64,000 nucleotides of DNA, taken from contig SHYZ01000001.1 in the NCBI GenBank assembly GCA_009692535.1, positions 15,360-79,359 of the forward strand, written 5' to 3'. This DNA comes from Myxococcales bacterium. Its GTDB lineage: Bacteria; Myxococcota_A; Polyangia; Haliangiales; SHYZ01. The position numbers and the translations under genes are program-made. Below the pieces are notes generated by a model. That model was not told where the DNA came from, ran no database searches, and saw only the letters and a program-made list of their open reading frames with translations. Below, piece by piece: positions 5,590 through 63,178 of this stretch. Every line of letters starts with the position of its first letter. The stretch's first letter is position 1.

Positions 5590-5991
5590 TCAGGTCACGA
5601 GATCCATCCCGAGCGCGAGCACGGTCAGCACGCGGCGCATCGCCGGCAGCTCGAGGTTCGCGTGCAGGTAGTCGGCGAGCGCGGGCTGGCGCGCGGCGAG
5701 CGTGGCCTCGCGATCCCCCCCCGCGACGGCATCGAGCTCACGGAACAGCATCGTGCGCACGCTGCGACCGAGCTGGCGACGGAAGCAAGCGGCGAGCAAG
5801 GCCGCGTGAAACACGACGCTCACCACGCCTGTGGCCCCGCCAAGCTCGTCGGCGTGCGCGGCCACGTAGCGCGACGCATCGGGTTGCAGCCGCACCCACT
5901 CATCGACGAGTCCGGATGCATAGCGTCCGTCAGCCATTTTCGCGCCGGCCTCGGCGACCACCTCAGCGACGATCTCTTCGGGAATCGCCAC
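5590..5991 (-). CDS. Hypothetical protein, paralogous to the N-terminal part of the SEC-C protein at 17145..17777
   Basis: 133-aa ORF convergent with the WYL pair. It shares the pattern QPxxxxxxA..G...VF(H/Y)..L..A.F.R...R.V and RQPxxxxxLxxxLE with the 17145..17777 product. Confidence 0.5.
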   Translation of the reverse strand: MAIPEEIVAEVVAEAGAKMADGRYASGLVDEWVRLQPDASRYVAAHADELGGATGVVSVVFHAALLAACFRRQLGRSVRTMLFRELDAVAGGDREATLAARQPALADYLHANLELPAMRRVLTVLALGMDLVT

Positions 5992-6097
5992 GTCACCTCC
6001 AGACCTGCGAGCCGCGTGTCACCTGCCTTAGCGAGCGCCGCGGAGCGTAGCCGCCAGTCTAGCCCCGGCACCTGTCCCGGACCATACTGCCTCGAGG

Positions 6098-7525
<1,428 letters not shown>

Positions 7526-15253: not shown

Positions 15254-15290
15254 GCATGACTCACGCGGCGGCTGTCCGAAGGACCGACCT

Positions 15291-29587: not shown

Positions 29588-29626
29588 CCGGTCGCGCCTG
29601 CGAAGTGCACGATTTCGCCGCGTGCG

Positions 29627-29673
29627 CCGCTCGATGGGGCCGCTCGATGGGGCCGCTCGATGGGGGCCGCTCG
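29627..29673 (+). repeat. Intergenic 13-bp tandem repeat (CCGCTCGATGGGG, about 3.5 copies)
   Basis: ccgctcgatgggg ccgctcgatgggg ccgctcgatggggg ccgctcg. It lies between obg and the first gene of the Glt/Nfs-like operon. Confidence 0.9.
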
Positions 29674-29786: not shown

Positions 29787-30518
29787 ATGACCGCCTCGCT
29801 CAGTCTTGTTGGCCAGTCCGGCCGCCTTATGGCGGCACTGCTCTTTGCCTTCGCGGTCGCGCTCCTCCCGGCCTCCGCTTCGGCGCAACCTGTGGAGCCC
29901 CCGACCGGCGCCAAGGCTCCCGAAGCCGACCCGCCAGAGGTGGCGTCGGCCGACACGACCGCGCCGGCCGGTGCCCCCGAGACAGCGTCGGCGAACATCC
30001 GGTTGCGTCGGCTCGAGCAGCGGGTGCAGGCGCTCAAGGAGCAGGCTTGGCGCATCAAGGCCCGCGTCGGCATGCTCAAGGAGGCGGTCCTCGGCGGCAG
30101 CATCGGCGCGCGCGCATCGATCGCGCATGAGAACAAAATGGGCGGCTCGTTCCGTCTCGTGAAGCTCGTCTACGCGCTCGACGGCACCCAGATCTTCTCG
30201 CGCACCGATGACAGCGGGAAGCTGCACGACCAAAAGCGCTTCGACATTCTCTCGGGGCCGATCGCGCCGGGCAACCACACGTTGTCGGTGCTGCTGCTCT
30301 ACCGCGGCCACGGCTACGGCGTGTTCGAGTACCTCAAGCAGTACAAGTTCACGGTGCGCTCGAGCCACACCGTCGTCATCGCCGAGGGGAAGCAGACCCA
30401 GGTGACCGTCGTCGGCTATGAGCGCGGCGGCGTCACGACTCCGCTCGAAAAGCGCCCCGCCGTCGACTTCAAGGTCAACTACGCGACCGACCGTCCCGCC
30501 GGCGCCAAGGGGAGGTAG
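29787..30518 (+). CDS. Secreted protein (coiled-coil segment + beta-rich domain), first gene of the Glt/Nfs-like operon
   Basis: Signal peptide MAALLFAFAVALLPASASA/QP and a heptad-like segment RLRRLEQRVQALKEQAWRIKARV. The stop overlaps the next GTG start by 1 nt. Confidence 0.65.
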   Translation: MTASLSLVGQSGRLMAALLFAFAVALLPASASAQPVEPPTGAKAPEADPPEVASADTTAPAGAPETASANIRLRRLEQRVQALKEQAWRIKARVGMLKEAVLGGSIGARASIAHENKMGGSFRLVKLVYALDGTQIFSRTDDSGKLHDQKRFDILSGPIAPGNHTLSVLLLYRGHGYGVFEYLKQYKFTVRSSHTVVIAEGKQTQVTVVGYERGGVTTPLEKRPAVDFKVNYATDRPAGAKGR

Positions 30519-33019
30519 TGCAGGCGCGACCCCACGTACGCACCGTCGCGCAGTCGACGGGCTTCGCGACCTTGGTCGCGACGGGCGGCGTGACGCGCCT
30601 TGCATCGTTGGGCGCGACGGGCCTCGCGACGCTGGTCGCCTTTGGGCTCGCCACGCTTTTCGCCGGCACCGCGCATGGCGACGCTTCCAACGCGATCGCC
30701 CGCAAGGTGCTCGCGCTCGAAGCCGACGCGCAAAACCTCGAGGACGGACTCTCCGCGCCGCTGGTCGACCGCTCCGGCGAGGACGAGGTGTCGCGGCGCT
30801 TCATCGAGGCCGAGGTCGCGTACGAGACCGGCAACTACGAGGACGCGTCGCTGCTGCTGTTCGACATCGTCGAGAAGCACAAGGGCTACCGCCGCTACCG
30901 ACAGGCGGTGTTCTATCTCGCCGACTCGCTGTTCCAGAAGCGGGACTACATCACTGCGCGCGAGGGCTTTCGTCGCCTGGTCTACGAGCGCGGTCCCGAG
31001 GACGTGCTCTATGCGCGCGCGCTTGAGCGATTGCTCGAGCTGTCGCTCGCGCTCAAGGACGACACCGACGTGCCCGACGTGCTCACACGACTCGGGCGGA
31101 TTCCCGAGGGGCAACAGCTGCCCTCGGCGCCGTACATCCGCGGCAAGTACGAGTATTTCCGCGGCAACCATGACACCGCGATCACCTCGCTCGAGCTCAT
31201 CCCGCGCTCGTCGCAGTACTACATCCGGGCGCGTTACTTTCTCGGCGGCAGCCATGTCGCCAAGGCGTACGACGCGAGTCGCGACAACCTGATCGCGCCG
31301 GAGTCGCTCGCCGCCGCCGCCAAGATCTTCCACGAGCTGGTGCAGGAGTCGGCGAAGACCAAGAACGATCAGCACATCCTCGAGCTGGCGCACCTCACGC
31401 TCGGCGAGATTCACTACGCGCGAGAGCAGCCGGCGGAGGCGATTCAGGAGTACCTCGCGATCTCCCGGCGCTCGCCGCTGTTCCCGACCGCGCTGATCGA
31501 GGTCACGCACGTCTACGTGCAGGCGCGGGACTTCGCCAAGGCGCTGCGCGCGCTCGAGTTACTCGAGATGGCCACCGGCTCGGCCTGCGACAAGAAGGAC
31601 GACAAGATCCCGGCCGCGCTGGTGCAACCCGACCTCTGCATCCTCAAGGGGAACCTCTCGATCCGGAAGGCGCAGGCACAAGCGCAGATCGCCGAGTCGG
31701 GCATCGAGGCGTACCGCAACGCGATGGCGATCTTCTCGACCACGCGCGACGTGTTCGAGAAGCCGCGCAAGCACCTCGAGGAGCTGCTCGCGAAGAACCA
31801 CGACCCGAAGCAGTTTTTCGCCCAGGTCACCGATGAGAATCCGACGGTCTTCGATGTCGACAGCGACCTGTTTCAGGTGGCGCGACGGTATGTGCGCGAG
31901 GAGGCCGAGGTCGGTCGCGTCGTGCATGTGACGACCGACCTCGTGAAGATCCGCGCCGAGCTGACCGAGGCCCGGCTGATGCTCGATCGACTCGACCGCA
32001 CGGTGCAGTCGGAGTCGCGCGTGCAAGTCTTCCCGAGCCTCGCGCGGCTGCGTGAGCGCGCGAACGACCTCGTCTCGTCGGCAGTCGGCCTGCGGCAGCA
32101 GGTGGTGGTCGCGACCAGCGCGCTCATCGCGAAGTACGCAGATGCGGCCGAGCGCGCCGAGCACGCCAAGCTGCTCGCCGCGCGGCAGACGATCACGAAG
32201 GAGCTCGGGCTCATCCGTGGCGACACGGCCTCGTCGGCCGACCGGATCAAGAAGGCGCGCTCGCGCTACTCGACCCTCGACAGCCACGCCAACGAGCTGG
32301 AGGTCTTCGTCGGCAGCCTCGAGGCGGAGATCGTCGCGATCGACAAGTTCTACCGCGACACCAAGGGAAACGAGCGCTACCCACAGGATCAGTTCGACCG
32401 CGACCTGCACGACATCCGCGAGCTCGTCGTCGCGTTGCAGAAGGAACTCGAGACGCTCCGCCGCGAGTCCGCGATGGGCGCCGATCAAGCCGGCACCGGC
32501 GACGAACTCGCCGCCGAGGACCGGAACCTCGAGGGCCGGCTCGACCGCACGCTGCGCGAGGAGGGCGCTCTCACGCGACGGCTGCTCGGGCGCATGAGAT
32601 CCAGCGATCGCGCGCGCGCCGAGCAACTGCTCGAATTGCTCGACCGGCTCGACGGTGTCGACGCGATCGTCGCGCGGGCGAACACCCGGATCGATCGCGT
32701 GCTCGACTCCGAATTGGCCGAGGTCAAGACGCTCATCGTCGAGGAGCAGGCGCGCGTGACGACCTACCAGAAGGAACTCGCGGCCACTGAGGCGGAGAAC
32801 CTCGACCTCGGCTCGCGCGTGATCTACTCGTCGTTCCAGAGCGTGTCGAAGCGCTTCTACGACATCACGGTGCGCGCCGATGTCGGCATGGTCGACGTGG
32901 GCTGGGCGCGACGCGAAGAGGCGGAGGGCGCGTACACGAAGGTGCAGTCGGACTCGGCGCGCGAGAAGCGGCTGCTGCGAAATGACTTCAAGGACGTGCT
33001 CGAGGAGGTGGGCCAGTGA
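30518..33019 (+). CDS. Periplasmic TPR + long coiled-coil protein (GltC/NfsC-like position)
   Basis: 833 aa with an N-terminal hydrophobic segment. TPR-like repeats include YETGNYEDASLLLFDIV and YYIRARYFLGGSHVAK. The C-terminal ~450 aa is heptad-rich. There is a GTGA overlap with the next gene. Confidence 0.7.
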   Translation: MQARPHVRTVAQSTGFATLVATGGVTRLASLGATGLATLVAFGLATLFAGTAHGDASNAIARKVLALEADAQNLEDGLSAPLVDRSGEDEVSRRFIEAEVAYETGNYEDASLLLFDIVEKHKGYRRYRQAVFYLADSLFQKRDYITAREGFRRLVYERGPEDVLYARALERLLELSLALKDDTDVPDVLTRLGRIPEGQQLPSAPYIRGKYEYFRGNHDTAITSLELIPRSSQYYIRARYFLGGSHVAKAYDASRDNLIAPESLAAAAKIFHELVQESAKTKNDQHILELAHLTLGEIHYAREQPAEAIQEYLAISRRSPLFPTALIEVTHVYVQARDFAKALRALELLEMATGSACDKKDDKIPAALVQPDLCILKGNLSIRKAQAQAQIAESGIEAYRNAMAIFSTTRDVFEKPRKHLEELLAKNHDPKQFFAQVTDENPTVFDVDSDLFQVARRYVREEAEVGRVVHVTTDLVKIRAELTEARLMLDRLDRTVQSESRVQVFPSLARLRERANDLVSSAVGLRQQVVVATSALIAKYADAAERAEHAKLLAARQTITKELGLIRGDTASSADRIKKARSRYSTLDSHANELEVFVGSLEAEIVAIDKFYRDTKGNERYPQDQFDRDLHDIRELVVALQKELETLRRESAMGADQAGTGDELAAEDRNLEGRLDRTLREEGALTRRLLGRMRSSDRARAEQLLELLDRLDGVDAIVARANTRIDRVLDSELAEVKTLIVEEQARVTTYQKELAATEAENLDLGSRVIYSSFQSVSKRFYDITVRADVGMVDVGWARREEAEGAYTKVQSDSAREKRLLRNDFKDVLEEVGQ

Positions 33020-36000
33020 GCCGCGCGCACAGGCTTCCCGTCGCGCTGCTCACGCTCGCGCTCACCGCCGGCGGCGCGCTGATGTCGTCACGCGGCCCGC
33101 ACGCCAACCCGCTGCCGCCGCGCGCCCCGGCCGACTCGGACGCGCTGCTCCAGCAACTCAACGAGCACGAGGCCGACGCGCTCCGCTACGAGACGCTCTC
33201 CGTCGAGCACCTGGCGCGGCTGCGCGAGCTCCTCGCCCGCGAGTACACCAAACGCAACCGCGCGATCAACGAACGGCACCGCAAGACGTGCGGACTCTCC
33301 AACGACGACTACCGCAAGCGGCACACCGAGGGGATGGCGCTGCTCGAGGACTTCCTCGTGCGCTATCCCGACGACGCCAAGTGGACTCCCGACGTAATGT
33401 TCCGGCTCGCGGAGCTGCACACCGACGAAGCGGGCATCAAATACGACCTCGCCGTTGGCCAGCGCCCCTGCTCCGATCTCGAGGAGGCCGCTGCCGCCGA
33501 GCCTGCCGAGGGCGACGGGCCGAGTGGGCCGGACTACACCAAGGCGATCGACCTCTACCGCGAGATCGTACGGCGCTGGCCGAGCTACCGACAGATCGAC
33601 TTTGTGCTCTACGCGCTGGCGTACTACCAGGGCAAGCAGCCGAGCGACGACAGCATCGTGCAGGAACGGAACGCTGCGCGCGCCGAGCTCGCGCACCAGG
33701 CGCTCATCTGTTTCAACAAGTCGGTGCGGACGTGCCGCGTCTACCGCGGGGCCCCCCTGACCTGCTCACAGACGAGCTGGTTCAGCGGTGTCTTGGTGAT
33801 GGAGCAGGACGGCGCGTTCCGGCAGTGCCGCGTGAACACCGGGGATCCGACGACCTGCGGCATGCCACTGACCGGGCAGGCCGTAGCGCTGCACGACGGG
33901 CGCTATCGCAACTGTCAATTCGTCGACGGCAAGCCGATGAGCTGCGACGGTGGCGCGTCGGGATCCTTCCCGGTGTCGCTCGACGCAATCGCCGAGCCGC
34001 CGCTCGACCTCGACGTCTGCTCGTCGCGCCAACTCGCGCGCGGTGCGCTGGTCGACGACTACCTCGCGGTCGACGAGGCCGGGGACCCGGTCTGCCTCAA
34101 GCAGAACCCCTGCTCGACAAACAACCCGTTTGCGCCGCTTGCGGACATCTACGCCGGCTGCACGCCCGCCCGCGCCGGCTCGACGCTGGTCGACGAGGTC
34201 TGGCTGCGCGTGGGCGAGTCGCACTTCTTCGGACGCTGCGAGCTGCCGCAGGCCGCGGCCGCCTACGGGCGCGTTGCGCGTGAGGACTCGGAGTACTTCG
34301 ACGCCGCGCTCTATCCGCTCGGCTGGACCTACTACCGCCTGAACCGCTACGCGAAGGCGCTCGAGTACTTCGATCGCTACGTTAAACTCTCCGACAAGCT
34401 CGAGACCGAGACGGGGGAGGGCTTCGCCTTCCGCGACCAGGCGGTGAAGTACCTCGCGATCTCGTTCTCGGATGCCTGGCCGGATCCCGATCCGGCACGC
34501 TCCGAGTCGAGCCCCAACCCGGCGAGCGCGCTTCGGCGCATCCAGCCATTCTACGCGGCGCGGCTCACAGAACGGCACGTGCGCGATGTCTACGAGGAGC
34601 TCGGCGACACGATCCTCTCGAACTCGGGACGGCCGGCCTCGGACAACATCATGACGTCGGACATGGAGTTCGGCTTCCGCAAGTCGGTTGAGTCCTGGCG
34701 CGTCGCGCTCACCAATTGGCCAATCCACAAGCGCAACCCGATCGTCCACAAGAAGGTCGTCGACGCGCTCGGCACGATCGTCGCCGCCGCACGCAAGGAC
34801 GAGCAGACCGCCACCGAGACGCTGGCCACGGCGACGACGCCAGCCGGGCGCGCCACCGCGCAGGAGGAACTCACCGCCGCGCAGGCCAAGGTGCGCAGCG
34901 CCACCGACGACGAGGTCGGCGAGCGGCAGCGGATCGCCGACCTCTATCGCGAGGGGGGCACCTGGTACGCGTCGAACGTGATGGACCGCGAGGCGATGGC
35001 GATCGCGCGCTCGCTCGCAGAAGACTCGCTCAAGCAGGCCGCCCTCGAGGTGAACCGCAAGGCCAAGGGCGAGCGCGAGGCGTGGGAAGCGCCGATCCGT
35101 GCGCGGCTCGAGCAGGCGGTGACCCTCGCAGCGGGTGGGCAGGCTGCGCTGCGCGCGATGAGTGGCGGGGAGATCGCTGCGCTCAAGGAGACCGTCGAGG
35201 AGCAGTTCGACAGCGAGCGGATGCGGCTGCAGGATGACCCGGGTCGCCGTGCCTACCAGAAGACCTATCTCGCGGCGGCTTCGATGTACCAGCGCTTCGT
35301 CGAGACCTACCCGACCTCGGCCGACGTGGCGCAGTTCACGTTCAACATGGCCGGCTGCTTCTTCTTTGCCGACAAATTCGACGACGCGATCGCCAACTAC
35401 CGCTGGGTGCGCGATGCGCGCGCGCTGGTCGAGCCGGCGGTCTGGGAGGACGCGGTGCGCCGCGTCGTCGAGTCGCGCCGGCTCGCCGTGGCGCAGCAAC
35501 TCGCGCGACGCCGCGACTGCGAGCAGACGCTCACGTCGCAAGGCGCGACCGCCGCGATCGCGGGCGAGCGTTGCGCGGGCTTCCTCGAGCAGCCGGCCGA
35601 TCTCACCGCGACCAGCCTGAAGGAGTGCCCGAGCGCGGTAGCCAACGCGATCACCTCGGTCGCCGAGACCGCCGACGGTGTCGAGGTCACGGTCCGCGCG
35701 CCCGATGACCAGGGTGCAGACGACATTCGGGTGCGGTCGCGCAAGCTCGCCGATCGGGCGTCGACCAGCGACCTGCAGGCGCAGGATCCCGCGACCACCG
35801 GCAAGTGCCCCATCGTGGTGGCCGGCACCACCGTCACCGTTACCGACATCGAGGGCGGCGCCACGCTTGCCGTCAGGCCGCTCGATCCGACCAAACTCGG
35901 GCTGCTCCGGCTGGTCTCGCGTCCGCTCGCGATCCCGCAGGAGGTGCCGCCGCTCTACGCCGACCTGCAGGGCGCGTATGACGAGTACGCGCAGTTCGTC

Positions 36001-38037
36001 CCGAACAATCCGGCCGCGGCCGAGTTCGCGCTCAAGGCGGCGATGATCGCCTACCGCCATATGCACCTCGACGGTCCCGGCGGCGCGGTCGAGCGCTTCC
36101 GCAAGATTGTCGGGCCGGCCGAGGCAGGCGGGTTCTGCAAGAGCGAAGAGGCCGTGCAGGCGAAGGAGGGTCTCCTCGTCGTCTACGCCTCGCGCGGCCA
36201 GAATGATCTCTACTTCAAGACCAACGAGGCGTTCGCTTCCGCCGCGTGCGGCGCGAGCGAAGACGACGCGCGCGTCGCACGTCAGGACAACGCGTCGCGT
36301 GAGTTCAACCTCGCGGTCGATCAACTCGACGAGGCGCTCACGATCAAGGAAGCAGGCAACGCGCTCTTGCGTCAGGGGATGCAGACCGAGGCGCAGGAAA
36401 AGTTCAAGGCGTCGCAGGAGCGCTTCCTCGCCGCAGCGCAGGCGTTCTACACGCTCTACGCCTGCCAGCGTCGCGAGGCCGGGAAGTGCCTGCCAATGTC
36501 GAACGACGATCCCGGCAAGGCGTACGCGCTCTACGCCTCGGCGACCGCGTACACCGAGGGCGGTCGGCCCAAGACCGGCATCGCGCTCTACCAGGTGCTG
36601 CTCACCGAGCAGCGCGCCTCCACGTTCTACGTCGAGTCGGTCTTCTATGTAGCGAAGGCGCACGAGGCCTCGTTCGACTTTAAGCGCGCCGGCGATCTCT
36701 ACCTCGAGTTCTTCAAGATCGCGTCCGGCCCGTCGCCAAACTTCCGCCGTCGCAACATGCGCGGCGAGCCCAGCTACGATCAGGACAAGCGCTCCGACCC
36801 CGGCTTCGACCTGCCGACCTTCAAGCTCGACTCGCTCTACAACGCCGCGCTGATGCGCGAGCTCGATCGCGACTATCGCGGCGCCGTGGACCTCTACCGC
36901 CAGTACGCGAGCGCGCCCGGCTCCGATCAGACCCGTGGCAGCGAGGCCTTCCTCCGCATCGCCGGCATCTACGAAAAGAACGGCGCGTACGACGACATGG
37001 TGAACGCCTTCGCCGCGTGGCGCCGGAACTACGTCCCCGATCCGGCCGACGGCAAGGTGCGCCTCAACTGGGTGCGCTCCTTCCACCTCGTCTCCACCGG
37101 CGTCGGCGGCAAGAAGGCCAAGGACCAGGCCGCAGCACAGCGCCGCACGATCGACGCGTTCTTCGAGGCGTACGGCCGCAAGCCCGACGGCGACGCCGAC
37201 GAGGAGAACGACGAGCCCGGGACGGTCCCGACCGGCGCCGAGCGCCTCGCGCGCGAGTGGGCCGGCGAGGCGCAGTACCGCCTCTCGACACGGGCGGCCG
37301 CGGGCGGCATCGCAAAGTTCAAGTTCAAGTGGGCCGGGAAGATCATCCCCGACGGCAAGCGCGTCACGCCCGAGCTCGCACGCGCCAACTACGACGCCTC
37401 CATCTCCGCGCTCATGGCGACGAACGCCACGACCCTCAGGGAGTACTTCAAGGTGCTCCGCTTCTCGAGCACCTGGGGCCTCTCGGCCAAGGTCGCGATT
37501 GGCGACACCTCGTTCATGGCGGGCCAGAAGCTGGTCGACACGCCGCTGCCTGACGAGGTCGTGCGCTTCGCGAAAGAGAACCCCGACGTCGACGTCGAGG
37601 CGCTGTTCCGTGAGCGCTTCGAGTGCGTCGCGTCGACAGACTTCTGGGACCCCGACGACCTCGAGCGCCAAAAGTTTTGCGGCTGCTCGAACGAGCGATT
37701 CCAGGGGCGCGGCGACACTTGCGAGGCCGAGCTCGGCGTCCTCACCGAGCAGGATCGCGACGGCGACAAGCGGGTCGACTACCTCGATGACGACGCCGAC
37801 GGCAACGGCGAGAACGACGTGGCCGGCGCGCTCTCACGTGGCGAGCCGAAGCCGCGGCGCAAGGGTTACTATCCGTACGGTGCCAAGCGGTTCTGGTCGG
37901 AGGTCGTCGCCGACGCCAAAGAGGTCGGCATCGCCAACGAGTTCACGCGCCACGCGGAAGAGCAGCTGAACCTGCTCGACCCGGAGAAGTACCCGGTCCA
38001 GCGTGCGGTGATCACCGAGCCGGTGCTCGAGCCGTAA
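33016..38037 (+). CDS. Giant periplasmic TPR-repeat protein (GltD/AgmU / NfsD-like)
   Basis: 1673 aa with signal peptide LLTLALTAGGALMS. TPR-like helical repeats run throughout (YALAYYQG, WTYYRLNRYAKALEYFDRYV, FNMAGCFFFADKFDDAIANYRWV, YNAALMRELDRDYRGAVDLYRQY). The antisense 1301-aa ORF is low-complexity R/G/A/V. Confidence 0.75.
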   Translation: MSRAHRLPVALLTLALTAGGALMSSRGPHANPLPPRAPADSDALLQQLNEHEADALRYETLSVEHLARLRELLAREYTKRNRAINERHRKTCGLSNDDYRKRHTEGMALLEDFLVRYPDDAKWTPDVMFRLAELHTDEAGIKYDLAVGQRPCSDLEEAAAAEPAEGDGPSGPDYTKAIDLYREIVRRWPSYRQIDFVLYALAYYQGKQPSDDSIVQERNAARAELAHQALICFNKSVRTCRVYRGAPLTCSQTSWFSGVLVMEQDGAFRQCRVNTGDPTTCGMPLTGQAVALHDGRYRNCQFVDGKPMSCDGGASGSFPVSLDAIAEPPLDLDVCSSRQLARGALVDDYLAVDEAGDPVCLKQNPCSTNNPFAPLADIYAGCTPARAGSTLVDEVWLRVGESHFFGRCELPQAAAAYGRVAREDSEYFDAALYPLGWTYYRLNRYAKALEYFDRYVKLSDKLETETGEGFAFRDQAVKYLAISFSDAWPDPDPARSESSPNPASALRRIQPFYAARLTERHVRDVYEELGDTILSNSGRPASDNIMTSDMEFGFRKSVESWRVALTNWPIHKRNPIVHKKVVDALGTIVAAARKDEQTATETLATATTPAGRATAQEELTAAQAKVRSATDDEVGERQRIADLYREGGTWYASNVMDREAMAIARSLAEDSLKQAALEVNRKAKGEREAWEAPIRARLEQAVTLAAGGQAALRAMSGGEIAALKETVEEQFDSERMRLQDDPGRRAYQKTYLAAASMYQRFVETYPTSADVAQFTFNMAGCFFFADKFDDAIANYRWVRDARALVEPAVWEDAVRRVVESRRLAVAQQLARRRDCEQTLTSQGATAAIAGERCAGFLEQPADLTATSLKECPSAVANAITSVAETADGVEVTVRAPDDQGADDIRVRSRKLADRASTSDLQAQDPATTGKCPIVVAGTTVTVTDIEGGATLAVRPLDPTKLGLLRLVSRPLAIPQEVPPLYADLQGAYDEYAQFVPNNPAAAEFALKAAMIAYRHMHLDGPGGAVERFRKIVGPAEAGGFCKSEEAVQAKEGLLVVYASRGQNDLYFKTNEAFASAACGASEDDARVARQDNASREFNLAVDQLDEALTIKEAGNALLRQGMQTEAQEKFKASQERFLAAAQAFYTLYACQRREAGKCLPMSNDDPGKAYALYASATAYTEGGRPKTGIALYQVLLTEQRASTFYVESVFYVAKAHEASFDFKRAGDLYLEFFKIASGPSPNFRRRNMRGEPSYDQDKRSDPGFDLPTFKLDSLYNAALMRELDRDYRGAVDLYRQYASAPGSDQTRGSEAFLRIAGIYEKNGAYDDMVNAFAAWRRNYVPDPADGKVRLNWVRSFHLVSTGVGGKKAKDQAAAQRRTIDAFFEAYGRKPDGDADEENDEPGTVPTGAERLAREWAGEAQYRLSTRAAAGGIAKFKFKWAGKIIPDGKRVTPELARANYDASISALMATNATTLREYFKVLRFSSTWGLSAKVAIGDTSFMAGQKLVDTPLPDEVVRFAKENPDVDVEALFRERFECVASTDFWDPDDLERQKFCGCSNERFQGRGDTCEAELGVLTEQDRDGDKRVDYLDDDADGNGENDVAGALSRGEPKPRRKGYYPYGAKRFWSEVVADAKEVGIANEFTRHAEEQLNLLDPEKYPVQRAVITEPVLEP

Positions 38038-38066
38038 CGAGGCCGTAACGAAGCCATGACCAAGCC

Positions 38067-39419
38067 ATGACGACCTTTCCCATAATCACCAACGGCGCCC
38101 CACGAGATCGCAGCTCGCGGTCGTGCGTTCCCAACGCCGTGCCCCGCGCCTGCTTCGCCGCCCTGCTCGGAGCGCTGCTCGCCAGCGGCGGCAGCGTCGT
38201 CGGCACCGGCTGCGGCGGCAGCGGCGCAAAGGCCAAGCAGGCCCCGACCACGCCGGAGTCGTCGGGTGAGGTCACCTACGGGACGCTGCCCGACAAGGAC
38301 TCTGAAGCGGGCACCGACAAGCCCGCGCTGCCCGACCCGAGCGATGCCGTCGCCGAGGCGCCCGCCGAGCAGCCCGAGGCCGAACCCGCGGTCCCGGTCG
38401 AACCGCCCAAGCCCCCAGGCGAGGACCTCTCGGACGAAGAGAAGCAACAGCGCGTGACGCGCCACCTCGCCGAGGCGCGCCAGCACCTTCGACAGAAGAA
38501 CGCCGACGGGATGATCAGCGCCGCGCTCGCCACGCTCGATGTCGACCAGACCAGCGTCGAGGCGATGATCCTGCTCGGCCACGGCTACTTCCTCAAAGGG
38601 TGGGACGACAAGTCGCGCGCGGTCCTCGAGGAGGCGCTGCGCCGCCAGCCGGACCTCGCGGGCAACGACGCCAAGCTTTGGATGATCTTTGGCCTGCTCA
38701 TGAGCCGCGCCGGCCGTGAGGAGGAGTCGCTGCAGCTCTATGGCCGCGCGACGGAGAAGAACCCCGACTACACCGAGGCGTGGATCAACCGCGGCGTGAT
38801 CTACCTGCGGCGGAACGCCTTCCTCTACGTCGAGAACGGCGAGACGATCGGCGCGCTGCCGTCGTTCGAGCGTGCGAACGGGCTGCAGCTCGGCGCCGCG
38901 ATGACCGACGACGATCGCGCAGGCTGCCGCTGCAAGCAGGCCGCGACCTGCGCGCACCTCGGCGCGGCGTATCGCGGGGTATCGAGCCTGTCGGGCCAGC
39001 CGCGCGACGAGCTGCTGTTGCGCGCGGAGCGTTGCTTCAAGAACGCGATGACCGTGCGCTCGAACTACGCGCCAGCGTACTACGACGCTGGGCTGCTCTA
39101 CCTCGACGCCGAGCCGTACCCGGGGCTCGAGAAGAAGCCGCGGCTCGAGCGCGCGATGACGTACCTCAAACGCTACCGGGAGCTCGCCGGCATCACGACC
39201 GATGCCGCGCTGGTCGCCCGCGCAGACGAGTACCTCGTGACCGCGCAAAAGGAATGGGACAAGGAAGACAAGCTCGAGAAGCGCAAGAAGGAGCGCGACG
39301 AGAAGAAGCGCCAGCGCGATCTCAAGGACCAGGAGAAGGCGCGAGCGAAGGCGGCGGAGACGGCGCCTGAACCCTCTGGTGACGAGCCCGCCCCCGCGCC
39401 GGAAGGAACCGTTCAATGA
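38067..39419 (+). CDS. TPR lipoprotein with a charged K/E/R tail (GltE/AglT / NfsE-like)
   Basis: Lipobox VVGTGCGG. TPR repeats include ILLGHGYFLKGWDDKSRAVLEEAL, NPDYTEAWINRGVIYL and YYDAGLLYLD. The tail reads KEWDKEDKLEKRKKERDEKKRQRDLKDQEK. Confidence 0.75.
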   Translation: MTTFPIITNGAPRDRSSRSCVPNAVPRACFAALLGALLASGGSVVGTGCGGSGAKAKQAPTTPESSGEVTYGTLPDKDSEAGTDKPALPDPSDAVAEAPAEQPEAEPAVPVEPPKPPGEDLSDEEKQQRVTRHLAEARQHLRQKNADGMISAALATLDVDQTSVEAMILLGHGYFLKGWDDKSRAVLEEALRRQPDLAGNDAKLWMIFGLLMSRAGREEESLQLYGRATEKNPDYTEAWINRGVIYLRRNAFLYVENGETIGALPSFERANGLQLGAAMTDDDRAGCRCKQAATCAHLGAAYRGVSSLSGQPRDELLLRAERCFKNAMTVRSNYAPAYYDAGLLYLDAEPYPGLEKKPRLERAMTYLKRYRELAGITTDAALVARADEYLVTAQKEWDKEDKLEKRKKERDEKKRQRDLKDQEKARAKAAETAPEPSGDEPAPAPEGTVQ

Positions 39420-39763
39420 GGCAGCCCATGAACCGTCCCATGACAACGAAGCTGCTCTTTGCGCTCGCACTCACCGCGTCGCTCACCGTCGGGCTGGCGC
39501 TCATGGCACCGCGCGCTCACGCTCAGGCTGGCGACGGTGGCTGCAGCGACAATGCCGACACCGGCGGCAAGCGCAAGCTGCGGCAGGTGCGCATGGCCGA
39601 CGGCACCATCAAGATCCTCGACGCGCTGGCGATTTGTGGCAAGGCGCCCAAGCCTTCGGTGCTCTCGTACCTTCAGTCCGAATCGTTAAACTACGAGTGG
39701 GAGAACACCCGCCCGAACTTTCTGAAGAAGGTGCACGAGCACCTCTCGAAGAGCCCGTTCTAG
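39416..39763 (+). CDS. Small secreted protein (GltF/NfsF-like position)
   Basis: 115 aa. ATGA overlap with the upstream gene. Signal peptide LLFALALTASLTVGLALMAPRAHA/QA. Confidence 0.6.
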   Translation: MRQPMNRPMTTKLLFALALTASLTVGLALMAPRAHAQAGDGGCSDNADTGGKRKLRQVRMADGTIKILDALAICGKAPKPSVLSYLQSESLNYEWENTRPNFLKKVHEHLSKSPF

Positions 39764-39772
39764 GAGATCCGC

Positions 39773-41137
39773 ATGGCCGCTCGACCCAATCAATCCCCAG
39801 GCGCCCCCCGCCCCAAGATCCTGCGCATCGGCATCCTGCTCGGCGGCAAGATCGTCGAGGAGCGCCTCGTCCGCGAGCGGACGAACGTAACCATCGGCCA
39901 GTCGTCCAAGAACACGTTCTGCATCCCGGCGCCCGAGATCGGCCGTGTCTGGCCGCTCTTCCGGCTGATCAACGGCCGCTACGCACTCTGCCTGACCGAG
40001 ACGATGGACGGGCGCCTCTCCGACGGCGGCCAGGTGCTTCCGCTCGCGCAGGCGCGCGTCGCCCCTGGCGTGCAGCGCTCGGGCAACGCCTTCCTCATCC
40101 CGCTCTCCGACACCGCGCGCGGCAAGGTCATCGTCGGCGACATGACGCTGCTCTTCCAGTTCGTCGTCGCACCGCCACTCCAGCCGCGACCGCAGCTGCC
40201 TCCGTCCGTGCGCGGCACGCTCGCCGACCGCATCGACCCGCACTTGGCGATCGTGCTGGCGCTGTCGCTCCTCTTCCACATGGGCTCGACGCTCTACGTG
40301 TATCGACTGGATCCTCCCAAAGAGGTGGATCCGGCGGAGATTCCCGAGCACCTGCGCGACCTCGTGGTGCAGGAGCCACCCAAGCCGCCCGCACCGAAGG
40401 ACACCGGCGCCAGCGAAGAGAAGAAGGCCGACGAGAAGAAGCCCGACGAGAAGAAGCCCGACAAGGCGGGCAAACCCGACGAGAAGAAACCCGATTCCTC
40501 CACCGATGCGTCCGCTGGCGCAAAGCAAAAGGCGCGCGTCTCGGGCGCCCTCGCGATCCTCGGGTCAGAGGGGGACGGCTCGAACAGCAGCGCGTACGCC
40601 GACGTGACCGGCGGCAAGACCGTCGGTGGCGACTCGGTCAAGAGCGCGCTCCAGGACGCGCGCGACGGTGGCGGGCTCGCGATGAACGAAGGGGGCACCG
40701 GCTCGAAGGGCACCGGCTCCGGGCGCATCGGCGGCGTGGACGGCTCGGGCGGCACCGGGCCGGTCGAGACGGGTGGCAAGGGGGGCTCCGGCTTGGTGGA
40801 GACCATCAAGGGCGATGTGAAGTCGTCGGGGCAGGAAGAGATCGACAACGAGGGGCTCGACGCGGAGGGGATCTTCCGCAAGATCCGCTCGACCTACATG
40901 AAGAATTTGGAGAAGTGCTACAACGACGCGCTCAAGGCCAACCAGAGCCTGCGCGGGGCCGTCGAGGTGACGATCAGCATTGGCCCGAACGGCAACGTGC
41001 AGAGCGCGGCCGTGGACGGGTTCGACCCGACGATGGACAGCTGCGTCAAGGAGAAGGCCAGAAACTGGCGCTTCGACAACCCGGACAAGTTCAAGGGGAC
41101 CTTCGCGTACACCTTCAGCTTCAGCCCGAACCGCTAG
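39773..41137 (+). CDS. FHA-like / TM(SxxxH) / KP-rich linker / TonB_C-like (AgmX-PglI-type) protein (GltG/NfsG-like)
   Basis: The N-terminal 130 aa resembles FHA (VTIGQSSKNTFCIP ... KVIVGDMTLLFQF). TM helix LAIVLALSLLFHMGSTLYVY carries SxxxH. The linker reads EEKKADEKKPDEKKPDKAGKPDEKKPD. The C-terminal GAVEVTISIGPNGNVQSAAVDGFDPTMDSCVKEKARNWRF has the TonB_C pattern. Confidence 0.75.
   Translation: MAARPNQSPGAPRPKILRIGILLGGKIVEERLVRERTNVTIGQSSKNTFCIPAPEIGRVWPLFRLINGRYALCLTETMDGRLSDGGQVLPLAQARVAPGVQRSGNAFLIPLSDTARGKVIVGDMTLLFQFVVAPPLQPRPQLPPSVRGTLADRIDPHLAIVLALSLLFHMGSTLYVYRLDPPKEVDPAEIPEHLRDLVVQEPPKPPAPKDTGASEEKKADEKKPDEKKPDKAGKPDEKKPDSSTDASAGAKQKARVSGALAILGSEGDGSNSSAYADVTGGKTVGGDSVKSALQDARDGGGLAMNEGGTGSKGTGSGRIGGVDGSGGTGPVETGGKGGSGLVETIKGDVKSSGQEEIDNEGLDAEGIFRKIRSTYMKNLEKCYNDALKANQSLRGAVEVTISIGPNGNVQSAAVDGFDPTMDSCVKEKARNWRFDNPDKFKGTFAYTFSFSPNR
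40415..40492 (+). repeat. Coding 15-bp repeat (GACGAGAAGAAGCCC; DEKKP)
   Basis: Two perfect copies, one near-perfect copy, and related flanking units. Confidence 0.8.
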
Positions 41138-41205: not shown

Positions 41206-41234
41206 TTGACACTGCCCGGACCGCTTCGTAAGAT
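41206..41234 (+). promoter_or_regulatory. Near-consensus sigma70-type promoter between the Glt-like and polysaccharide gene sets
   Basis: TTGACA (41206-41211), a 17-nt spacer, then TAAGAT (41229-41234). A GGAGG sequence lies about 7 nt before the TTG start at 41275. Confidence 0.55.
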
Positions 41235-41274: not shown

Positions 41275-41871
41275 TTGTCCTACATTTTCTGGTCTAGAAC
41301 CCACTCCACGCTGTTCGTCGCCACGCTACTTTGCGGAGGCGGTTTTGTGTTCGCCCAGGAAGCGCCGAAAGCGACAACCGTCGGCGACCAACCGGTCGAG
41401 GCGGTGGACGTGCCGCTTCGCAAGCGCGCCGAAATCTCGTCGCGCGACATGGCCAAGCAGGCGACCTCGATCCTGTCGGGCATGAAAGAGACGCTCCAGC
41501 ACGTCGTAAAACAGCAGGAGCAGGCCAAGAAGCTCCGCGATGTCATCAAGGTGAACTGCGTCGCCGACAAGCTCCTCCAGATCAAGCAGCTCGTGAACAT
41601 TGGCGAGTCCGCCAACACGAACCTGCAAGAGGCGACCGCTCGCGAGGACGAGGAGTCGCGGTACCACGAGTTCGGTCGCATCACGATCGCTGGCCAACAG
41701 GTGGCGGTCCTTCGCTCCGAGGCTGACAACTGCATCGGGGTCGACCTGACGTTCATGGGTCCGACTCAGGTGGTGGTTGAGACGCCGAATGAGCCGGAAG
41801 ACCCGACCCTGCCGAGTGAGCCGACGTTCCCTGTGGTGGAGCCACCGCCAGTCGCCAGTCCGTTCGTCTGA
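41275..41871 (+). CDS. Secreted coiled-coil protein of unknown function
   Basis: TTG start preceded by GGAGG. Signal peptide STLFVATLLCGGGFVFA/QE. The central region is helical and heptad-like. Confidence 0.6.
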   Translation: MSYIFWSRTHSTLFVATLLCGGGFVFAQEAPKATTVGDQPVEAVDVPLRKRAEISSRDMAKQATSILSGMKETLQHVVKQQEQAKKLRDVIKVNCVADKLLQIKQLVNIGESANTNLQEATAREDEESRYHEFGRITIAGQQVAVLRSEADNCIGVDLTFMGPTQVVVETPNEPEDPTLPSEPTFPVVEPPPVASPFV

Positions 41872-41893: not shown

Positions 41894-43270
41894 ATGACCG
41901 ACTCGTTCCGTCGCCCGCTGCTGTGCGCTGCGCTCTTCGTGACCGCGACGCCTGCGTTCGCGCTCGCGCAGTCGGCGCGTGGCGAAGGCGGCGCGAGTGC
42001 CGACTCGGTGGGCGAGGCCAGCGGAGACCCACCCGGGCTGCTCGAGGGCGGCGGGATCCTCGTCGGTGAGGGCATCACGTTTCACCCGACGCTCGAGCTC
42101 CACGGCGGCTACCAGTCCAACGTGTTCTTCGAGGACGACAACGATCGCGGCAACCAGGGGCAGATCGGCTCGCCGATCATCAGGTTCGCGGTCGGTGGCG
42201 GACTCGGCACCCGGCCGCTCCAGCGCCTCGAGGTCGAAGCCGGCGACGGCGAGCCTCCGTCGCGCAAGCTCGCACTCCGCGGCGACGTCCTGCTCACCTG
42301 GAACCAGTACCTCGCCGAGCATTGGGGCGTCTCGGAGCAGAGCGATCTCGGCGTCGGCCTGCTGCTTGACGCCCACTTCAACCCCGACGCACCGCTCTCG
42401 GTCCGCGTTCGCGAGGGGTTCACGCGCGCGGTCACGCCACCGACGGCCCTCTCCATCGAGGGCGCCGACCGCGACAAGAACGACCTCGTGCTCGGAATCG
42501 TCTACAAGCCGGGCGGCGGCGCGATCGAGGGCTACGCGCACTACACGTTCGGCGTGGACCTCTTCGAGCGCAATGCACTCCAGTTCTCAAATCGCGCCTC
42601 GCACATGGGCACGGTCGGCGGGCGGTGGCAGTGGCTGCCGAAAACGCAGTTCAACACCGAGGCAAACGTCGGTCTCGTCAGCGGCACGTCGCTCAAGAGC
42701 GACTCGATGCCGATGCGTTTCTGGGCCGGCACCTCGACGCTGATCACGCCCACCGTCGGGCTGGTGCTGCGCGGCGGGTACGGCATGGGCAACTACACCA
42801 CCGGCGAGACGTTCGACAGCTACCTCGCGCAGGCCGAGGGGCGCATCGCGGTCGGCCCGGTGTTCCGGCTCGCGTTCGGCTACTCGCACGACTTCACCGA
42901 CACGCTGATCGCGAACTTCTACACCGACCACGCGGTCTACGGTCGCATGAGCACGCAGGTCGCAGGGCGACTCCAGCTGCGCGCGCGCGGCGAGCTGCGC
43001 TTCCGCGACTACTCGGGCATCCCGATGACGGCGCAGGGCGTCGTATTTTGCTCCGGCGGCGCGGCCTCCTGCTCGTCGAGCGACCGCACCGACATCGTGG
43101 CGCGCGTCGACACCACGCTCGACTACCAGTTCAACCCCTGGCTGGTCCTCGGCGGCGCGTTCACGCTGCTCAGCGACACGACCGACTTCTTCATCGTGGC
43201 GGGCTCGCAGAGCGACTCCGCCGGCTTCGTCTGGACCGAGTTCCTGGCGAAGGCGTCAGCTCACTTCTAA
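41894..43270 (+). CDS. Outer-membrane beta-barrel (Wzp/ExoB-type porin partner of the short OPX; alternative: GltH/NfsH-like)
   Basis: The ATG at 41894 gives the signal peptide MTDSFRRPLLCAALFVTATPAFALA/QS. There are many short amphipathic strands with aromatic ends. The sequence terminates ...FLAKASAHF. It lies 15 nt upstream of the OPX gene. Confidence 0.6.
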   Translation: MTDSFRRPLLCAALFVTATPAFALAQSARGEGGASADSVGEASGDPPGLLEGGGILVGEGITFHPTLELHGGYQSNVFFEDDNDRGNQGQIGSPIIRFAVGGGLGTRPLQRLEVEAGDGEPPSRKLALRGDVLLTWNQYLAEHWGVSEQSDLGVGLLLDAHFNPDAPLSVRVREGFTRAVTPPTALSIEGADRDKNDLVLGIVYKPGGGAIEGYAHYTFGVDLFERNALQFSNRASHMGTVGGRWQWLPKTQFNTEANVGLVSGTSLKSDSMPMRFWAGTSTLITPTVGLVLRGGYGMGNYTTGETFDSYLAQAEGRIAVGPVFRLAFGYSHDFTDTLIANFYTDHAVYGRMSTQVAGRLQLRARGELRFRDYSGIPMTAQGVVFCSGGAASCSSSDRTDIVARVDTTLDYQFNPWLVLGGAFTLLSDTTDFFIVAGSQSDSAGFVWTEFLAKASAHF

Positions 43271-43285
43271 ATCTTGAGGTTTCGC

Positions 43286-43927
43286 ATGCCGCGTGCAGCG
43301 CTCAACCCGCACGCGAGCCTCCGGGTACGTCGCTCCGTCGGCGTCGTGCTCGCGTTGCTCGCAGCCCTCTCCACCGCCGCGTGCATTCGCGACGTCCCGG
43401 TCGCGCCGTATCCCGACCTGCCCGAGCCGCCCGCCTCCGACCTCGCCGTCGGCCCCGGCGACGCTTTCGACGTACGCGTGTTCGATGAGGCCGCGCTGTC
43501 GAACACCTACGTCGTGGCGGCGGACGGCATGATCAACTTTCCGCTCATCGGCCTCGTCGCGGTGGGGACCCTGGTGCCGTCGGAGATCGAGAAGGAGCTC
43601 GCGCGCCGCCTGTCCGACGGCTTCGTGCGCAGCCCGCAGGTCTCGGTGCTGATGAAGGAGTACCGCTCGAAGACGGTCACGGTCACCGGCCAGGTGCGCG
43701 CCCCTGGCACGTTCGGCTATGTGCGCCACATGTCGATCGTCGAAGCAGTCGCGCGCGCCGGTGGCTTCACCGCGCTCGCGAAGAAGAACAGCGTCAAGGT
43801 CACACGCACCGCCGAGGGGCCGCGGCAAATCCTCTTCGTGGCCGTCGACGACATCGGCAAGGGCAAGTCGCCCGACTTCATCCTGCGGCCGGGCGACAAG
43901 ATTCTCGTCGAAGAGCGGCCGTTCTAG
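43286..43927 (+). CDS. Short outer-membrane polysaccharide export (OPX, Wza-like) lipoprotein lacking the C-terminal OM helix
   Basis: Lipobox LSTAAC. Poly_export motif GPGDAFDVRVFDE...YVVAADGMINFPLIG.V.V.G....EIEKELARRL. One SLBB-like module (VTVTGQVRAPGTF ... ILRPGDKILV). The protein ends after only 213 aa. Confidence 0.8.
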   Translation: MPRAALNPHASLRVRRSVGVVLALLAALSTAACIRDVPVAPYPDLPEPPASDLAVGPGDAFDVRVFDEAALSNTYVVAADGMINFPLIGLVAVGTLVPSEIEKELARRLSDGFVRSPQVSVLMKEYRSKTVTVTGQVRAPGTFGYVRHMSIVEAVARAGGFTALAKKNSVKVTRTAEGPRQILFVAVDDIGKGKSPDFILRPGDKILVEERPF

Positions 43928-43931: not shown

Positions 43932-45077
43932 GTGACGGCGGGCGCGGTCAAGCTGGCGCATGTCTGGTCCTCGGACATGGGCATCGTGCTGTCGCTGCCG
44001 CAGCTGCGTCACTTCGTCGCGCGAGGCTGGGAGGTATTTGCGATCTGCCCCGACGGGCCACGGCTCGACGAGGTGCGCCGCGCGGGCGTGACCTGGCTGC
44101 CGATTCCGCTCTCCCGACGACTCGTCGATCCCGCCGGCGACTTGCGGTCGGCCGCGCGCATCGCAACGTACTGTCGGCGCCATCGCTTCGATCTGGTGCA
44201 CACGCACAACGTGAAGACCGGCTTCATCGGTCGCCTGTTCGCGCGCGCCGGCGGTGCGCCCCGCGTGCTCCACACGATGCACGGCATGCCGTTCGGCGCC
44301 GAGACGCCGGCCATGCGCCGCCTCGGCCACGCGGGGCTCGAGTGGCTCGCGTGCCGGTTCGTGGACCGCGTGCTGGTGCAGAGCGAAGAGGATCTGCGCA
44401 CGATGCAGGCGCATCGGCTGCTCCCGGCAGGCCGACTCACGCGCATCGGCAACGGCGTGCCGCTCGACCGCTTCGATCCGGCGCGGGCCGACGGCGCCGC
44501 GGTTCGGGCCGAGCTTGGGATCGCGCCGCACGAGCTGCTCGTCGTGTCGGCGGGCCGGCTGGTGCGATCCAAGGGGTTCGTCGAGCTCGCTGAGGCGACG
44601 CGGCTCGCGCGCATCGAGGAGCCGCGCTTGCGGGTCGCGATCGTCGGCCCCCGTGACCTCGACAAGGCCGACGCGCTCACCGACCGCGAGCTCGACGCGG
44701 TACGCGCGGCCGGTGTGCTGCTGCCGGGCGAGCGGGCCGACATGCCCGACGTGCTCGCCGCGGCCGACATCGTCACGCTGCCGTCGTGGCACGAGGGCAT
44801 GCCGCGCGTGCTCATCGAGGGCGCAGCGCTTGGCAAGCCGCTCGTCGCCACCAACGTGCGCGGCTGTCGCGAGGTGGTCGTCGATCCCGACGGCGGCGCG
44901 CTGACGCCGGTACGCGACGCGCATGCACTCGCACACGCGCTCGTCGCGCTCGCTCGCGATCCTGCACGCAGGAAGGCGGCGGGGGCATTCAACCGGGCGC
45001 GCGCGCTCGCCGAGTACGACGTCAGCGCGGTGATCCGCCGCGTCGAGACTGTGTACGAGGAGCTACTCGGGGCATGA
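43932..45077 (+). CDS. Glycosyltransferase family 4 (GT-B)
   Basis: The GTG at 43932 lies 4 nt after the OPX stop. N-terminus is KLAHVWSSDMG. EX7E region is PSWHEGMPRVLIEGAALGKPLVATNVRGCREVV. Confidence 0.85.
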   Translation: MTAGAVKLAHVWSSDMGIVLSLPQLRHFVARGWEVFAICPDGPRLDEVRRAGVTWLPIPLSRRLVDPAGDLRSAARIATYCRRHRFDLVHTHNVKTGFIGRLFARAGGAPRVLHTMHGMPFGAETPAMRRLGHAGLEWLACRFVDRVLVQSEEDLRTMQAHRLLPAGRLTRIGNGVPLDRFDPARADGAAVRAELGIAPHELLVVSAGRLVRSKGFVELAEATRLARIEEPRLRVAIVGPRDLDKADALTDRELDAVRAAGVLLPGERADMPDVLAAADIVTLPSWHEGMPRVLIEGAALGKPLVATNVRGCREVVVDPDGGALTPVRDAHALAHALVALARDPARRKAAGAFNRARALAEYDVSAVIRRVETVYEELLGA

Positions 45078-49484: not shown

Positions 49485-49503
49485 GGGCCAAGGATGGCGC
49501 CCA

Positions 49504-52613: not shown

Positions 52614-52661
52614 ACCTCACGAGCGACGCCGCGCGAGCGACGCTGCTCCTGCCCACGCACG

Positions 52662-54960: not shown

Positions 54961-54964
54961 CACG

Positions 54965-57238: not shown

Positions 57239-57327
57239 CGATGCGTTCAGGCGGTTGCCCGCGATCTTCTACCAGCTTGGCCAAGGGCCCGCAACGCGCG
57301 TGCTAGCCTGCCCGGACGGAACCCCGC

Positions 57328-58815: not shown

Positions 58816-58818
58816 TCG

Positions 58819-63141: not shown

Positions 63142-63178
63142 GATTTCACGTGAGACTAGTAAGGAGGGTTTGGGTCGG

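Follow-up and report, generated by a model that had tools for sequence, protein, structure and literature searches.

A predicted orthologue of the Myxococcus xanthus G4 cluster, followed by Class-3 OPX-like and polysaccharide genes, in an uncultured myxobacterium

What is the task of a Glt/Nfs-like gene block that encodes neither a motor nor the small outer-membrane barrels of the gliding machinery? Such a block, six genes on the forward strand here called g1 to g6 (positions 29787-41137), lies in a 64,000-nt stretch of contig SHYZ01000001.1 from a Myxococcales bacterium (hereafter the window; G+C content ≈ 69%). An earlier note on this DNA had taken the block for a third, reduced flavour of the Glt/Nfs family. 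By sequence comparison, we identify it as an orthologue of cluster G4 (MXAN_1919-1923) of Myxococcus xanthus in an uncultured Polyangia/Haliangiales-like myxobacterium. The flavour is thus not new: the locus is collinear with G4, and Luciano et al. described G4 and G5 in 2011 as further Glt/Nfs paralogue clusters whose function was unknown (PMC3169522). G4 has been an orphan since then, and the sole reported test is a polar mutant that moved normally. Taken alone, the window holds the orthologue of a known, uncharacterised cluster from an unsampled lineage. The conservation, the larger extent and the polysaccharide neighbours described below make a role of G4 in the export or surface distribution of biosurfactant polysaccharide (BPS) a concrete question. 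They also bear on the proposal that a polysaccharide-handling core was the evolutionary origin of the gliding and spore-coat machines.

The six genes are tightly packed. From g1 to g6 the successive junctions in the open reading frame (ORF) listing are overlaps of 1 and 4 nt, a gap of 29 nt, an overlap of 4 nt and a gap of 9 nt, exactly as the earlier note had them. Codon bias is of the coding type in all six (G+C content of third codon positions 0.85-0.91, of second positions 0.41-0.49), and the same genes g1 to g6 are called in independent metagenome assemblies.

Searches with the NCBIfam gliding models matched three of the proteins at scores far below the equivalog cutoffs: g2 matched gliding_GltC (E 3.5e-16, 59 bits, cutoff 450), g6 matched gliding_GltG (95 bits, cutoff 650, model positions 205-632 aligned) and g4 weakly matched gliding_GltE (E 3e-4, 19.7 bits, cutoff 225). 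The window copy of g5 gave no match to gliding_CglF; in the g5 family, 19 of the 55 members did (best E 9e-11). We equate CglF with GltF. The Archangium counterparts were also sub-cutoff but scored higher (GltC 80, GltE 126, CglF 42 and GltG 165 bits). Because these counterparts and the 19 g5-family members match Glt models, the chain of homology closes for g4 and g5 as well, and the gltC-D-E-F-G order that had been proposed for the block was borne out. Since the equivalog scores lie so far under their cutoffs, the proteins are paralogues rather than Glt itself.

The link to M. xanthus was made through Archangium loci together with published locus tags and protein sizes, not through M. xanthus DNA itself. 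The Archangium loci encode, in order, MglB (159 aa), MglA (195 aa), proteins of 252, 788, 1097, 434, 89 and 453 aa, a cyclic-nucleotide (cNMP)-binding protein, proteins of 188 and 423 aa, and a 204-aa Poly_export/SLBB protein. All nine proteins g1 to g9 of the window match these loci in order (tblastn). In M. xanthus, MglA is MXAN_1925 (PMC3983030), WzpB is MXAN_1916 and WzaB is MXAN_1915 (PMC12819527, PMC9603273); the Archangium gene count from mglA to wzaB fits the tags MXAN_1925-1915 exactly. Since the matches are collinear and the count fits the tags, we infer that the window locus is the G4 counterpart. The two top named relatives of g3 (P0004 and P0015, both from Archangium) also lie in loci that run from mglBA to an outer-membrane polysaccharide export (OPX) gene.

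The published G4 table lists MXAN_1923, 1922, 1921, 1920 and 1919 as glt homologues of 809, 1111, 490, 91 and 447 aa, and MXAN_1922 is the gltD homologue of G4 (PMC3169522). Here the corresponding sizes are 833, 1673, 450, 115 and 454 aa in the same gene order. Both loci lack a motor gene and genes for GltA/B/H/K, and both have a gene at the WzpB position and a WzaB-type gene downstream. They differ in that the window has rplU-rpmA-obg upstream instead of mglBA, has no cNMP-binding gene between g6 and g7, and encodes a GltD-like protein ~500 residues longer; sequence identity is only 23-49%. In the window a large polysaccharide locus adjoins the block, whereas the other BPS genes of M. xanthus are > 1 Mbp away (PMC9603273).

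Table 1. Coordinates of the block and of downstream features in the window; descriptions are sequence-based predictions
Feature	Coordinates	Strand	Description
g1	29787-30518	+	243 aa, MXAN_1924 position
g2	30518-33019	+	833 aa, GltC-like, MXAN_1923 position
g3	33016-38037	+	1673 aa, GltD-like TPR protein, MXAN_1922 position
g4	38067-39419	+	450 aa, GltE-like TPR protein, MXAN_1921 position
g5	39416-39763	+	115 aa, GltF/CglF-like, MXAN_1920 position
g6	39773-41137	+	454 aa, GltG-like inner-membrane transducer, MXAN_1919 position
Sigma-70-like promoter match	41206-41234	+	TTGACA-17-TAAGAT in the 137-nt g6-g7 spacer
g7	41275-41871	+	198-aa conserved exported protein, MXAN_1917 position
g8	41894-43270	+	458 aa, candidate outer-membrane beta-barrel, WzpB (MXAN_1916) position
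g9	43274-43927	+	217-aa WzaB-like Class-3 OPX lipoprotein, MXAN_1915 position
Wzx/Wzy-type polysaccharide locus	43932-63522		Directly after g9
Wzc tyrosine kinase co-polymerase	54965-57238	-	
Wzy-like polymerase	57328-58815		

How widely is this arrangement conserved? A genome scan with one genome per species returned 80 loci, all of G4 type and none from M. xanthus; they came from Kofleriaceae, Haliangiales, Polyangia, Myxococcaceae, Archangium, Vitiosangium and one Bradymonadia metagenome-assembled genome (MAG). The closest copy of g6 in the scan was 44% identical, which places the source lineage outside the set of species representatives. Of the 63 loci with sufficient upstream flank, 62 had g1, g2, g3 and g6 in collinear order. 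Among the 55 loci with sufficient downstream flank, 38 had an OPX homologue within 10 kb downstream and 22 had g7, g8 and g9 all present. Outside the Myxococcaceae/Archangium group, obg was the usual upstream neighbour; one MAG each from Kofleriaceae, Haliangiales and groundwater had the identical six-gene order, two of the three with obg upstream and polysaccharide genes downstream. The unit therefore does not end at 41137, where the earlier note had closed it, but has a conserved continuation of g7, a candidate barrel gene at the WzpB position and a WzaB-like OPX gene.

From these comparisons, the extension of the block to the MXAN_1924-like g1, to g7 and to the WzpB-position and WzaB-like genes appears to be undescribed; g1 appears never to have been counted in G4 before. 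The same seems to hold for the phylum-wide synteny of the block with a Class-3 OPX translocon and for the large polysaccharide locus that directly follows here. In the searchable literature, MXAN_1917-1921 and MXAN_1923-1924 were absent outside the supplementary table of Luciano et al. (2011), and MXAN_1917, MXAN_1918 and MXAN_1924 were found in no paper.

Of the six proteins, g6 is the most informative as to mechanism. Its structural model (built with 44 homologues) has three structured parts and a disordered linker rich in G, K, A, D, S, P and E. Residues 15-132 adopt an FHA fold: the top Foldseek matches in the PDB were all FHA domains (E 4e-4, probability 1.0, pLDDT > 90). Pfam did not detect FHA in g6, and residues mapped by eye gave an invariant GQ where FHA domains usually have GR. 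The N-terminus of the model thus reads as an FHA fold that probably lacks the canonical site for phosphothreonine. The first ~ 200 residues of the GltG model have no counterpart in g6; it is in this region that GltG of M. xanthus has its Pfam FHA domain (residues 26-90).

A single transmembrane (TM) helix spans residues 156-179 of g6, and the protein has a conserved PPLQPRPQLP sequence. Within the helix, S165 and H169 (S-x3-H) were invariant in an alignment of 11 sequences and again in one of 44. We take this to be the spacing of the TonB (S16/H20, SHLS-type)/TolA motif that couples to ExbB/TolQ channels. The C-terminal domain has a TonB fold (Foldseek against 1u07, TM-score 0.63, root-mean-square deviation 2.1 Å), carries two invariant cysteines and scored above cutoff on NCBIfam myxo_SS_tail, the AgmX/PglI C-terminal domain (60.9 bits, cutoff 40). 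TonB chains were also found by a PDB profile search (E 7e-5), and the NCBIfam tonB_Cterm score was 24.5 against a cutoff of 27.1. Like TonB and TolA, g6 thus has one N-proximal TM helix with SxxxH, an extended charged and Pro-rich linker and a TonB_C fold. It differs from them in its cytoplasmic FHA-fold domain and the two conserved C-terminal cysteines, and, compared with TonB/TolA and their ExbBD/TolQR channels, its partners are TPR proteins rather than TonB-dependent receptors.

More than 550 full-length relatives of g6 (37-50% identity) were found, mostly in metagenomes and in MAGs assigned to Kofleriaceae, Haliangiales and 'Myxococcales'. An exhaustive profile search gave 994 representative clusters at E ≤ 1e-30, the best 150 of which were all full-length and of G4 type. 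In three representatives of 922-937 aa (P0323, P0324 and P0348), which are much longer than g6, the g6 profile matched in three separate stretches, best over profile positions ~ 10-142, the FHA-fold domain.

Every block protein except g6 has a predicted export signal. The N-terminal region of g2 consists of tetratricopeptide repeats (TPR; Pfam TPR/ARM_TT21 matches), and its C-terminal half reads as a putative coiled coil, by inspection of the sequence and not from a predictor; g2 also matched the tol_pal_ybgF model. At other loci, g2 was collinear at 25-40% identity and g4 at 24-41%. The g4 protein, a probable lipoprotein, has Pfam TPR_11/14/17 matches and a signal peptide; VGTGC is a possible lipobox, and the tail is rich in K and E. 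The g5 protein has a signal peptide; in an alternative gene call it begins at 39428 and is 111 aa long. These results agree with the architectures proposed earlier for g1 (secreted), g2, g3 (TPR), g4, g5 and g6 (FHA-TM-TonB_C); the term coiled-coil that had been given to g1 is only partly apt, as g1 has a beta domain (see below).

The very large g3 protein has a signal peptide and a few Pfam TPR repeats. Its nearest named relatives are TPR proteins of ~ 1100 aa from Archangium and Vitiosangium, those of Archangium lying inside G4-type loci. Among 5.8 billion proteins searched, none except g3 itself was > 35% identical. Against orthologues of 1166-1191 aa, tblastn aligned g3 in three collinear segments. 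The surplus of ~ 500 residues is made up of about a dozen lineage-specific non-TPR insertions, some of them Cys-rich, the largest at residues 236-353, 831-973 and 1537-1621. The first of these is Cys-rich and has three C-x-[VF]-x-x-G-x-P-x-x-C loops (11 residues, Cys-bounded). None of the insertions was seen in any orthologue examined. The size of 1673 aa, which the earlier note had found unusual for a GltD-like protein, is real; judged from the alignments, the extra length is a peculiarity of the lineage and not of the family, whose other members measure 1097-1191 aa. We rejected an assembly fusion as the origin of g3: the identical 1673-aa product is called in independent assemblies.

In identity, g1 is the best-conserved member of the block (39-71% at other loci by tblastn). 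It consists of a signal peptide, a disordered P/A linker, a helix (residues 69-101) and an eight-stranded beta domain (residues 108-233), which the AlphaFold model gives with pLDDT > 90 throughout. None of 1785 homologues carried a Pfam domain, and the best 120 were 57-84% identical. No Pfam or NCBIfam family matched g1, a sequence-profile search of the PDB gave no match, and a fold search of the PDB with the model gave only generic beta-sandwich matches, none at E ≤ 0.001. We also considered g1 as a GltA/GltB-type barrel and rejected this: in the model, the beta domain that accompanies the helix looks soluble, and no family match was obtained.

Beyond g6, the g7 protein was found at the equivalent position in 34 loci, Archangium included, at 31-50% identity; it has no Pfam or NCBIfam match. 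The g8 reading frame, open from 41777, encodes a signal peptide and a terminal Phe, and its product was 22-45% identical to its positional counterparts in 25 loci. The Archangium counterpart of g8 weakly matched EpsL, a polysaccharide outer-membrane protein. WzpB (MXAN_1916), whose position g8 occupies, is an 18-strand porin (PMC9603273).

The g9 protein has Poly_export and SLBB domains only (Pfam) and lacks the Wza_C helix; it carries the lipobox TAAC and matched NCBIfam EpsY/pepcterm_export. Against PDB 9n9a_A the match had an E-value of 8.8e-38 over 176 residues; from its length and the position of an RR pair, we take 9n9a to be the crystal structure of M. xanthus sWzaB. WzaB is reported to contact WzcB through Arg106-Arg107 and WzpB through Phe203-Phe204 (PMC12819527). 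At these positions g9 has R-S and P-F and the Archangium orthologues K/R-H and F-F; only the last Phe was invariant (four orthologues). The set resembles the Class-3 OPX translocon WzcB-WzaB-WzpB of the BPS pathway (Saidi et al. 2022; Mellouk et al. 2026) in the domains, lipobox and terminal Phe of g9, in a gene (g8) at the WzpB position and in a Wzc-type co-polymerase encoded in the window locus. It differs in that the published model is without any G4 protein.

The Wzx/Wzy-type polysaccharide locus encodes GT4 enzymes, epimerases, a WecA-like initiating transferase, a Wzy_C/TPR protein, a CapD-like dehydratase, a DegT aminotransferase and a GFO/IDH/MocA oxidoreductase, in addition to the Wzc and Wzy-like proteins of Table 1. 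No Wzx flippase was recognisable in the window. The terminator scan of the region was uninformative (10 sites against 9.5 expected), and 2 promoter-like sites were observed against 0.7 expected, counting consensus matches only. Far upstream (8637-10106, reverse strand), a 489-aa protein is encoded that has 9-10 hydrophobic segments and matches no Pfam family.

Where, then, is the motor? As the earlier note had remarked, the window encodes no AglRQS/TolQR-type stator: none of the ~ 50 window ORFs scanned with Pfam had a MotA/TolQ/ExbB or ExbD domain, and no TolQ-sized protein with three TM helices was found. The absence of GltA/B/H/K-type barrels held up as well; no window ORF matched these or GltI or GltJ. 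In the flanks of 82 loci we found no recurrent TolQ-sized multi-TM protein, by a heuristic that would miss an ExbD-like single-TM protein. A locus without a motor gene is the normal state in Myxococcales. The aglRQS genes and the M2 cluster sit away from Glt-type loci, and Nfs borrows AglRQS; AglR binds both GltG and NfsG, and the proton-driven AglRQS motor carries both Nfs and the Wza-exported Exo polymer round the spore (PMC3858216). Both Agl-Glt and Nfs work after export and not in synthesis (PMC3858216). Since g6 has an FHA-like fold, a membrane helix with SxxxH and a C-terminal domain folded like that of TonB, we would expect a proton-driven motor here too, with its genes elsewhere.

The comparison with the two known machines is instructive. 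Agl-Glt (gltA-K, aglRQS, cglB) shares with the window locus the GltC-, D-, E-, F- and G-type components, that is, a TonB-like inner-membrane protein and a periplasmic TPR scaffold, but the window locus lacks the GltA/B/H/K barrels, GltI, GltJ and CglB and all its equivalog scores fail. Agl-Nfs (nfsA-H, Exo/MASC) is the best functional analogy: it is a Glt paralogue with a Wza/Wzp-exported polysaccharide as cargo and a motor encoded elsewhere. It differs in having the outer-membrane components NfsA, NfsB and NfsH, in not adjoining its exo genes and in its known link to sporulation, none being known for G4. The eight-gene nfsA-H layout was not found here, as g1 has no family match and g6 is not followed by an H-type gene. 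Glt has its closest paralogue in Nfs; G4 is more distant (PMC3169522).

We regard it as an even call whether the G4 orthologue works as an envelope transducer, driven by a motor supplied in trans, that acts on an exported polysaccharide. According to this model, g6 would draw its energy from a TolQR/AglRQS-type proton channel whose genes lie elsewhere in the genome and would pass the work through the periplasmic assembly of g1 to g5, with its TPR scaffold, to the outer membrane, where g8 and g9 could supply a partner. The cargo or partner would be the polysaccharide that the neighbouring Wzc-OPX-Wzp pathway exports; WzaB is known to join WzcB and WzpB in an export complex across the envelope (PMC12819527). 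By analogy with Agl-Nfs and the Exo spore-coat polymer, the module might spread, anchor or pull the polymer during or after export, and would not take part in synthesis.

A wider view, which we offer tentatively and consider doubtful as it stands, is that G4-type modules are an ancient and widespread machine of the Myxococcota with a Class-3 OPX/Wzp export pathway for polysaccharide as the native partner, and that the window, where module, g7, candidate barrel, OPX gene and a large synthesis locus stand in one row, keeps the ancestral layout that later gave rise to gliding (Glt) and spore-coat winding (Nfs). A TonB-like, proton-motor-driven TPR complex would then pull, spread or gate a secreted BPS-like polymer.

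Several observations weigh against the transducer model. The promoter-like site in the g6-g7 spacer suggests that g7 to g9 and the polysaccharide genes may be transcribed apart from g1 to g6. An OPX gene within 10 kb downstream was missing from 17 of the 55 loci, and at least 13 Kofleriaceae-type loci have a Ser/Thr kinase gene, instead of g7 to g9, right after the g6 homologue (L009-L013, L015-L017, L019, L021, L022, L038 and L063, at ~ 11.4-12.8 kb; kinase-domain matches are common in myxobacteria). The published account of WzaB-WzpB-WzcB presents a secretion route that is complete with no Glt-like component (PMC12819527). The M. xanthus M2 homologue of AglR did not bind GltG or NfsG, G4 not being among the proteins tested (PMC3858216), and a 64-kb window cannot reveal the cognate motor. 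For g3, no NCBIfam Glt model matched, and the GltD label rests on synteny and on the table of Luciano et al. Finally, the literature links G4 experimentally to no polysaccharide; we found no G4-BPS or G4-WzaB link in a search that did not cover the 2015 capsule/motility review.

The main rival to a polysaccharide-directed transducer is an envelope-maintenance system of the Tol-Pal/CpoB kind, in which a TolA/TonB-like protein and TPR proteins of the YbgF/BamD type would serve to tether the outer membrane or to organise it, independently of the polysaccharide genes, whose adjacency would be historical. G4-type GltD-like proteins do pass the cutoffs of the TPR models tol_pal_ybgF and BamD, and there is the ybgF match of g2, but TPR model matches are generic. 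The breadth of the family (994 representative clusters, including lineages not known to glide), its usual place after the housekeeping genes rplU-rpmA-obg and the unusual conservation of g1 would all suit a maintenance function; M. xanthus, however, has a bona fide Tol-Pal system elsewhere (MXAN_5753-5757). The loci without a nearby OPX gene (17/55) fit this rival as well, whereas the g7-Wzp-OPX trio trails the module from Myxococcaceae to Polyangia, and chance retention is hard to accept for proteins at 25-45% identity. On balance, we consider an envelope-maintenance role unlikely.

Could the module instead be a static scaffold or regulator that has no motor at all? Here g6 would serve as an FHA-like signalling anchor, addressed by Ser/Thr kinases or by MglA, that gates or positions the OPX/Wzp translocon. 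The cytoplasmic FHA-fold domain of g6 invites this idea, but the canonical phosphothreonine residues seem not to be kept (GQ for GR, and no FHA detected by Pfam). The kinase genes right after g6 in at least 13 loci point in the same direction, although such adjacency may be unspecific for the reason given above. The Archangium loci, with mglBA upstream and a cNMP-binding gene within the block, and the lack of a motor gene near any locus examined are also consistent with a static role. Against it stand the invariant SxxxH motif of the TM helix and the TonB_C fold, which are hallmarks of motor-coupled transducers. A motor-free scaffold thus seems rather improbable.

A gliding machine functionally equivalent to Agl-Glt, which homology and the gene order in common with gltC-G might suggest, is highly improbable: the Glt equivalog scores are all far under cutoff, the locus lacks genes for GltA/B/H/K, GltI and GltJ, and a polar insertion in MXAN_1922 left both gliding and twitching of M. 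xanthus unaffected, G4 being no substitute for glt (PMC3169522). Equally little weight falls to an unrecognised third Glt/Nfs flavour, since the strong divergence of the window proteins (g3 relatives at ≤ 35% identity, the closest genome copy of g6 at 44%) reflects an unsampled lineage and not a new system, the same six-gene order and sizes recurring in 62 of 63 loci and corresponding to the G4 published in 2011.

The flanks of the block yielded a few further observations. In Archangium, the block begins ≈ 46 nt past mglB-mglA, and the cNMP-binding gene lies between the g6 and g7 homologues (5740-6818 and 16300-16749 in locus L005; 5720-6798 and 16463-16912 in locus L006). These neighbours hint that, in this group, the block is linked to the polarity GTPase by its regulation. 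PEGA/CarboxypepD_reg and kinase genes are found 5′ of mglBA-G4 in Archangium. In the window, a TPR/PEGA protein and a Ser/Thr kinase are encoded 12 kb upstream of the block (13733-17108), and only the kinase domain is similar between the two (~ 34%). A pair of WYL-domain genes at 3519-5584, one with a PafC-type helix-turn-helix and WCX, resembles a PafBC-like regulator pair. Upstream of g1 are gatCAB, an IF-2B-family gene, rplU, rpmA and obg. The obg-g1 intergenic region contains a tandem repeat (29626-29673) of the 13-nt unit GCCGCTCGATGGG, present in 3.6 copies with 97% matches, ≈ 115 nt before the start of g1.

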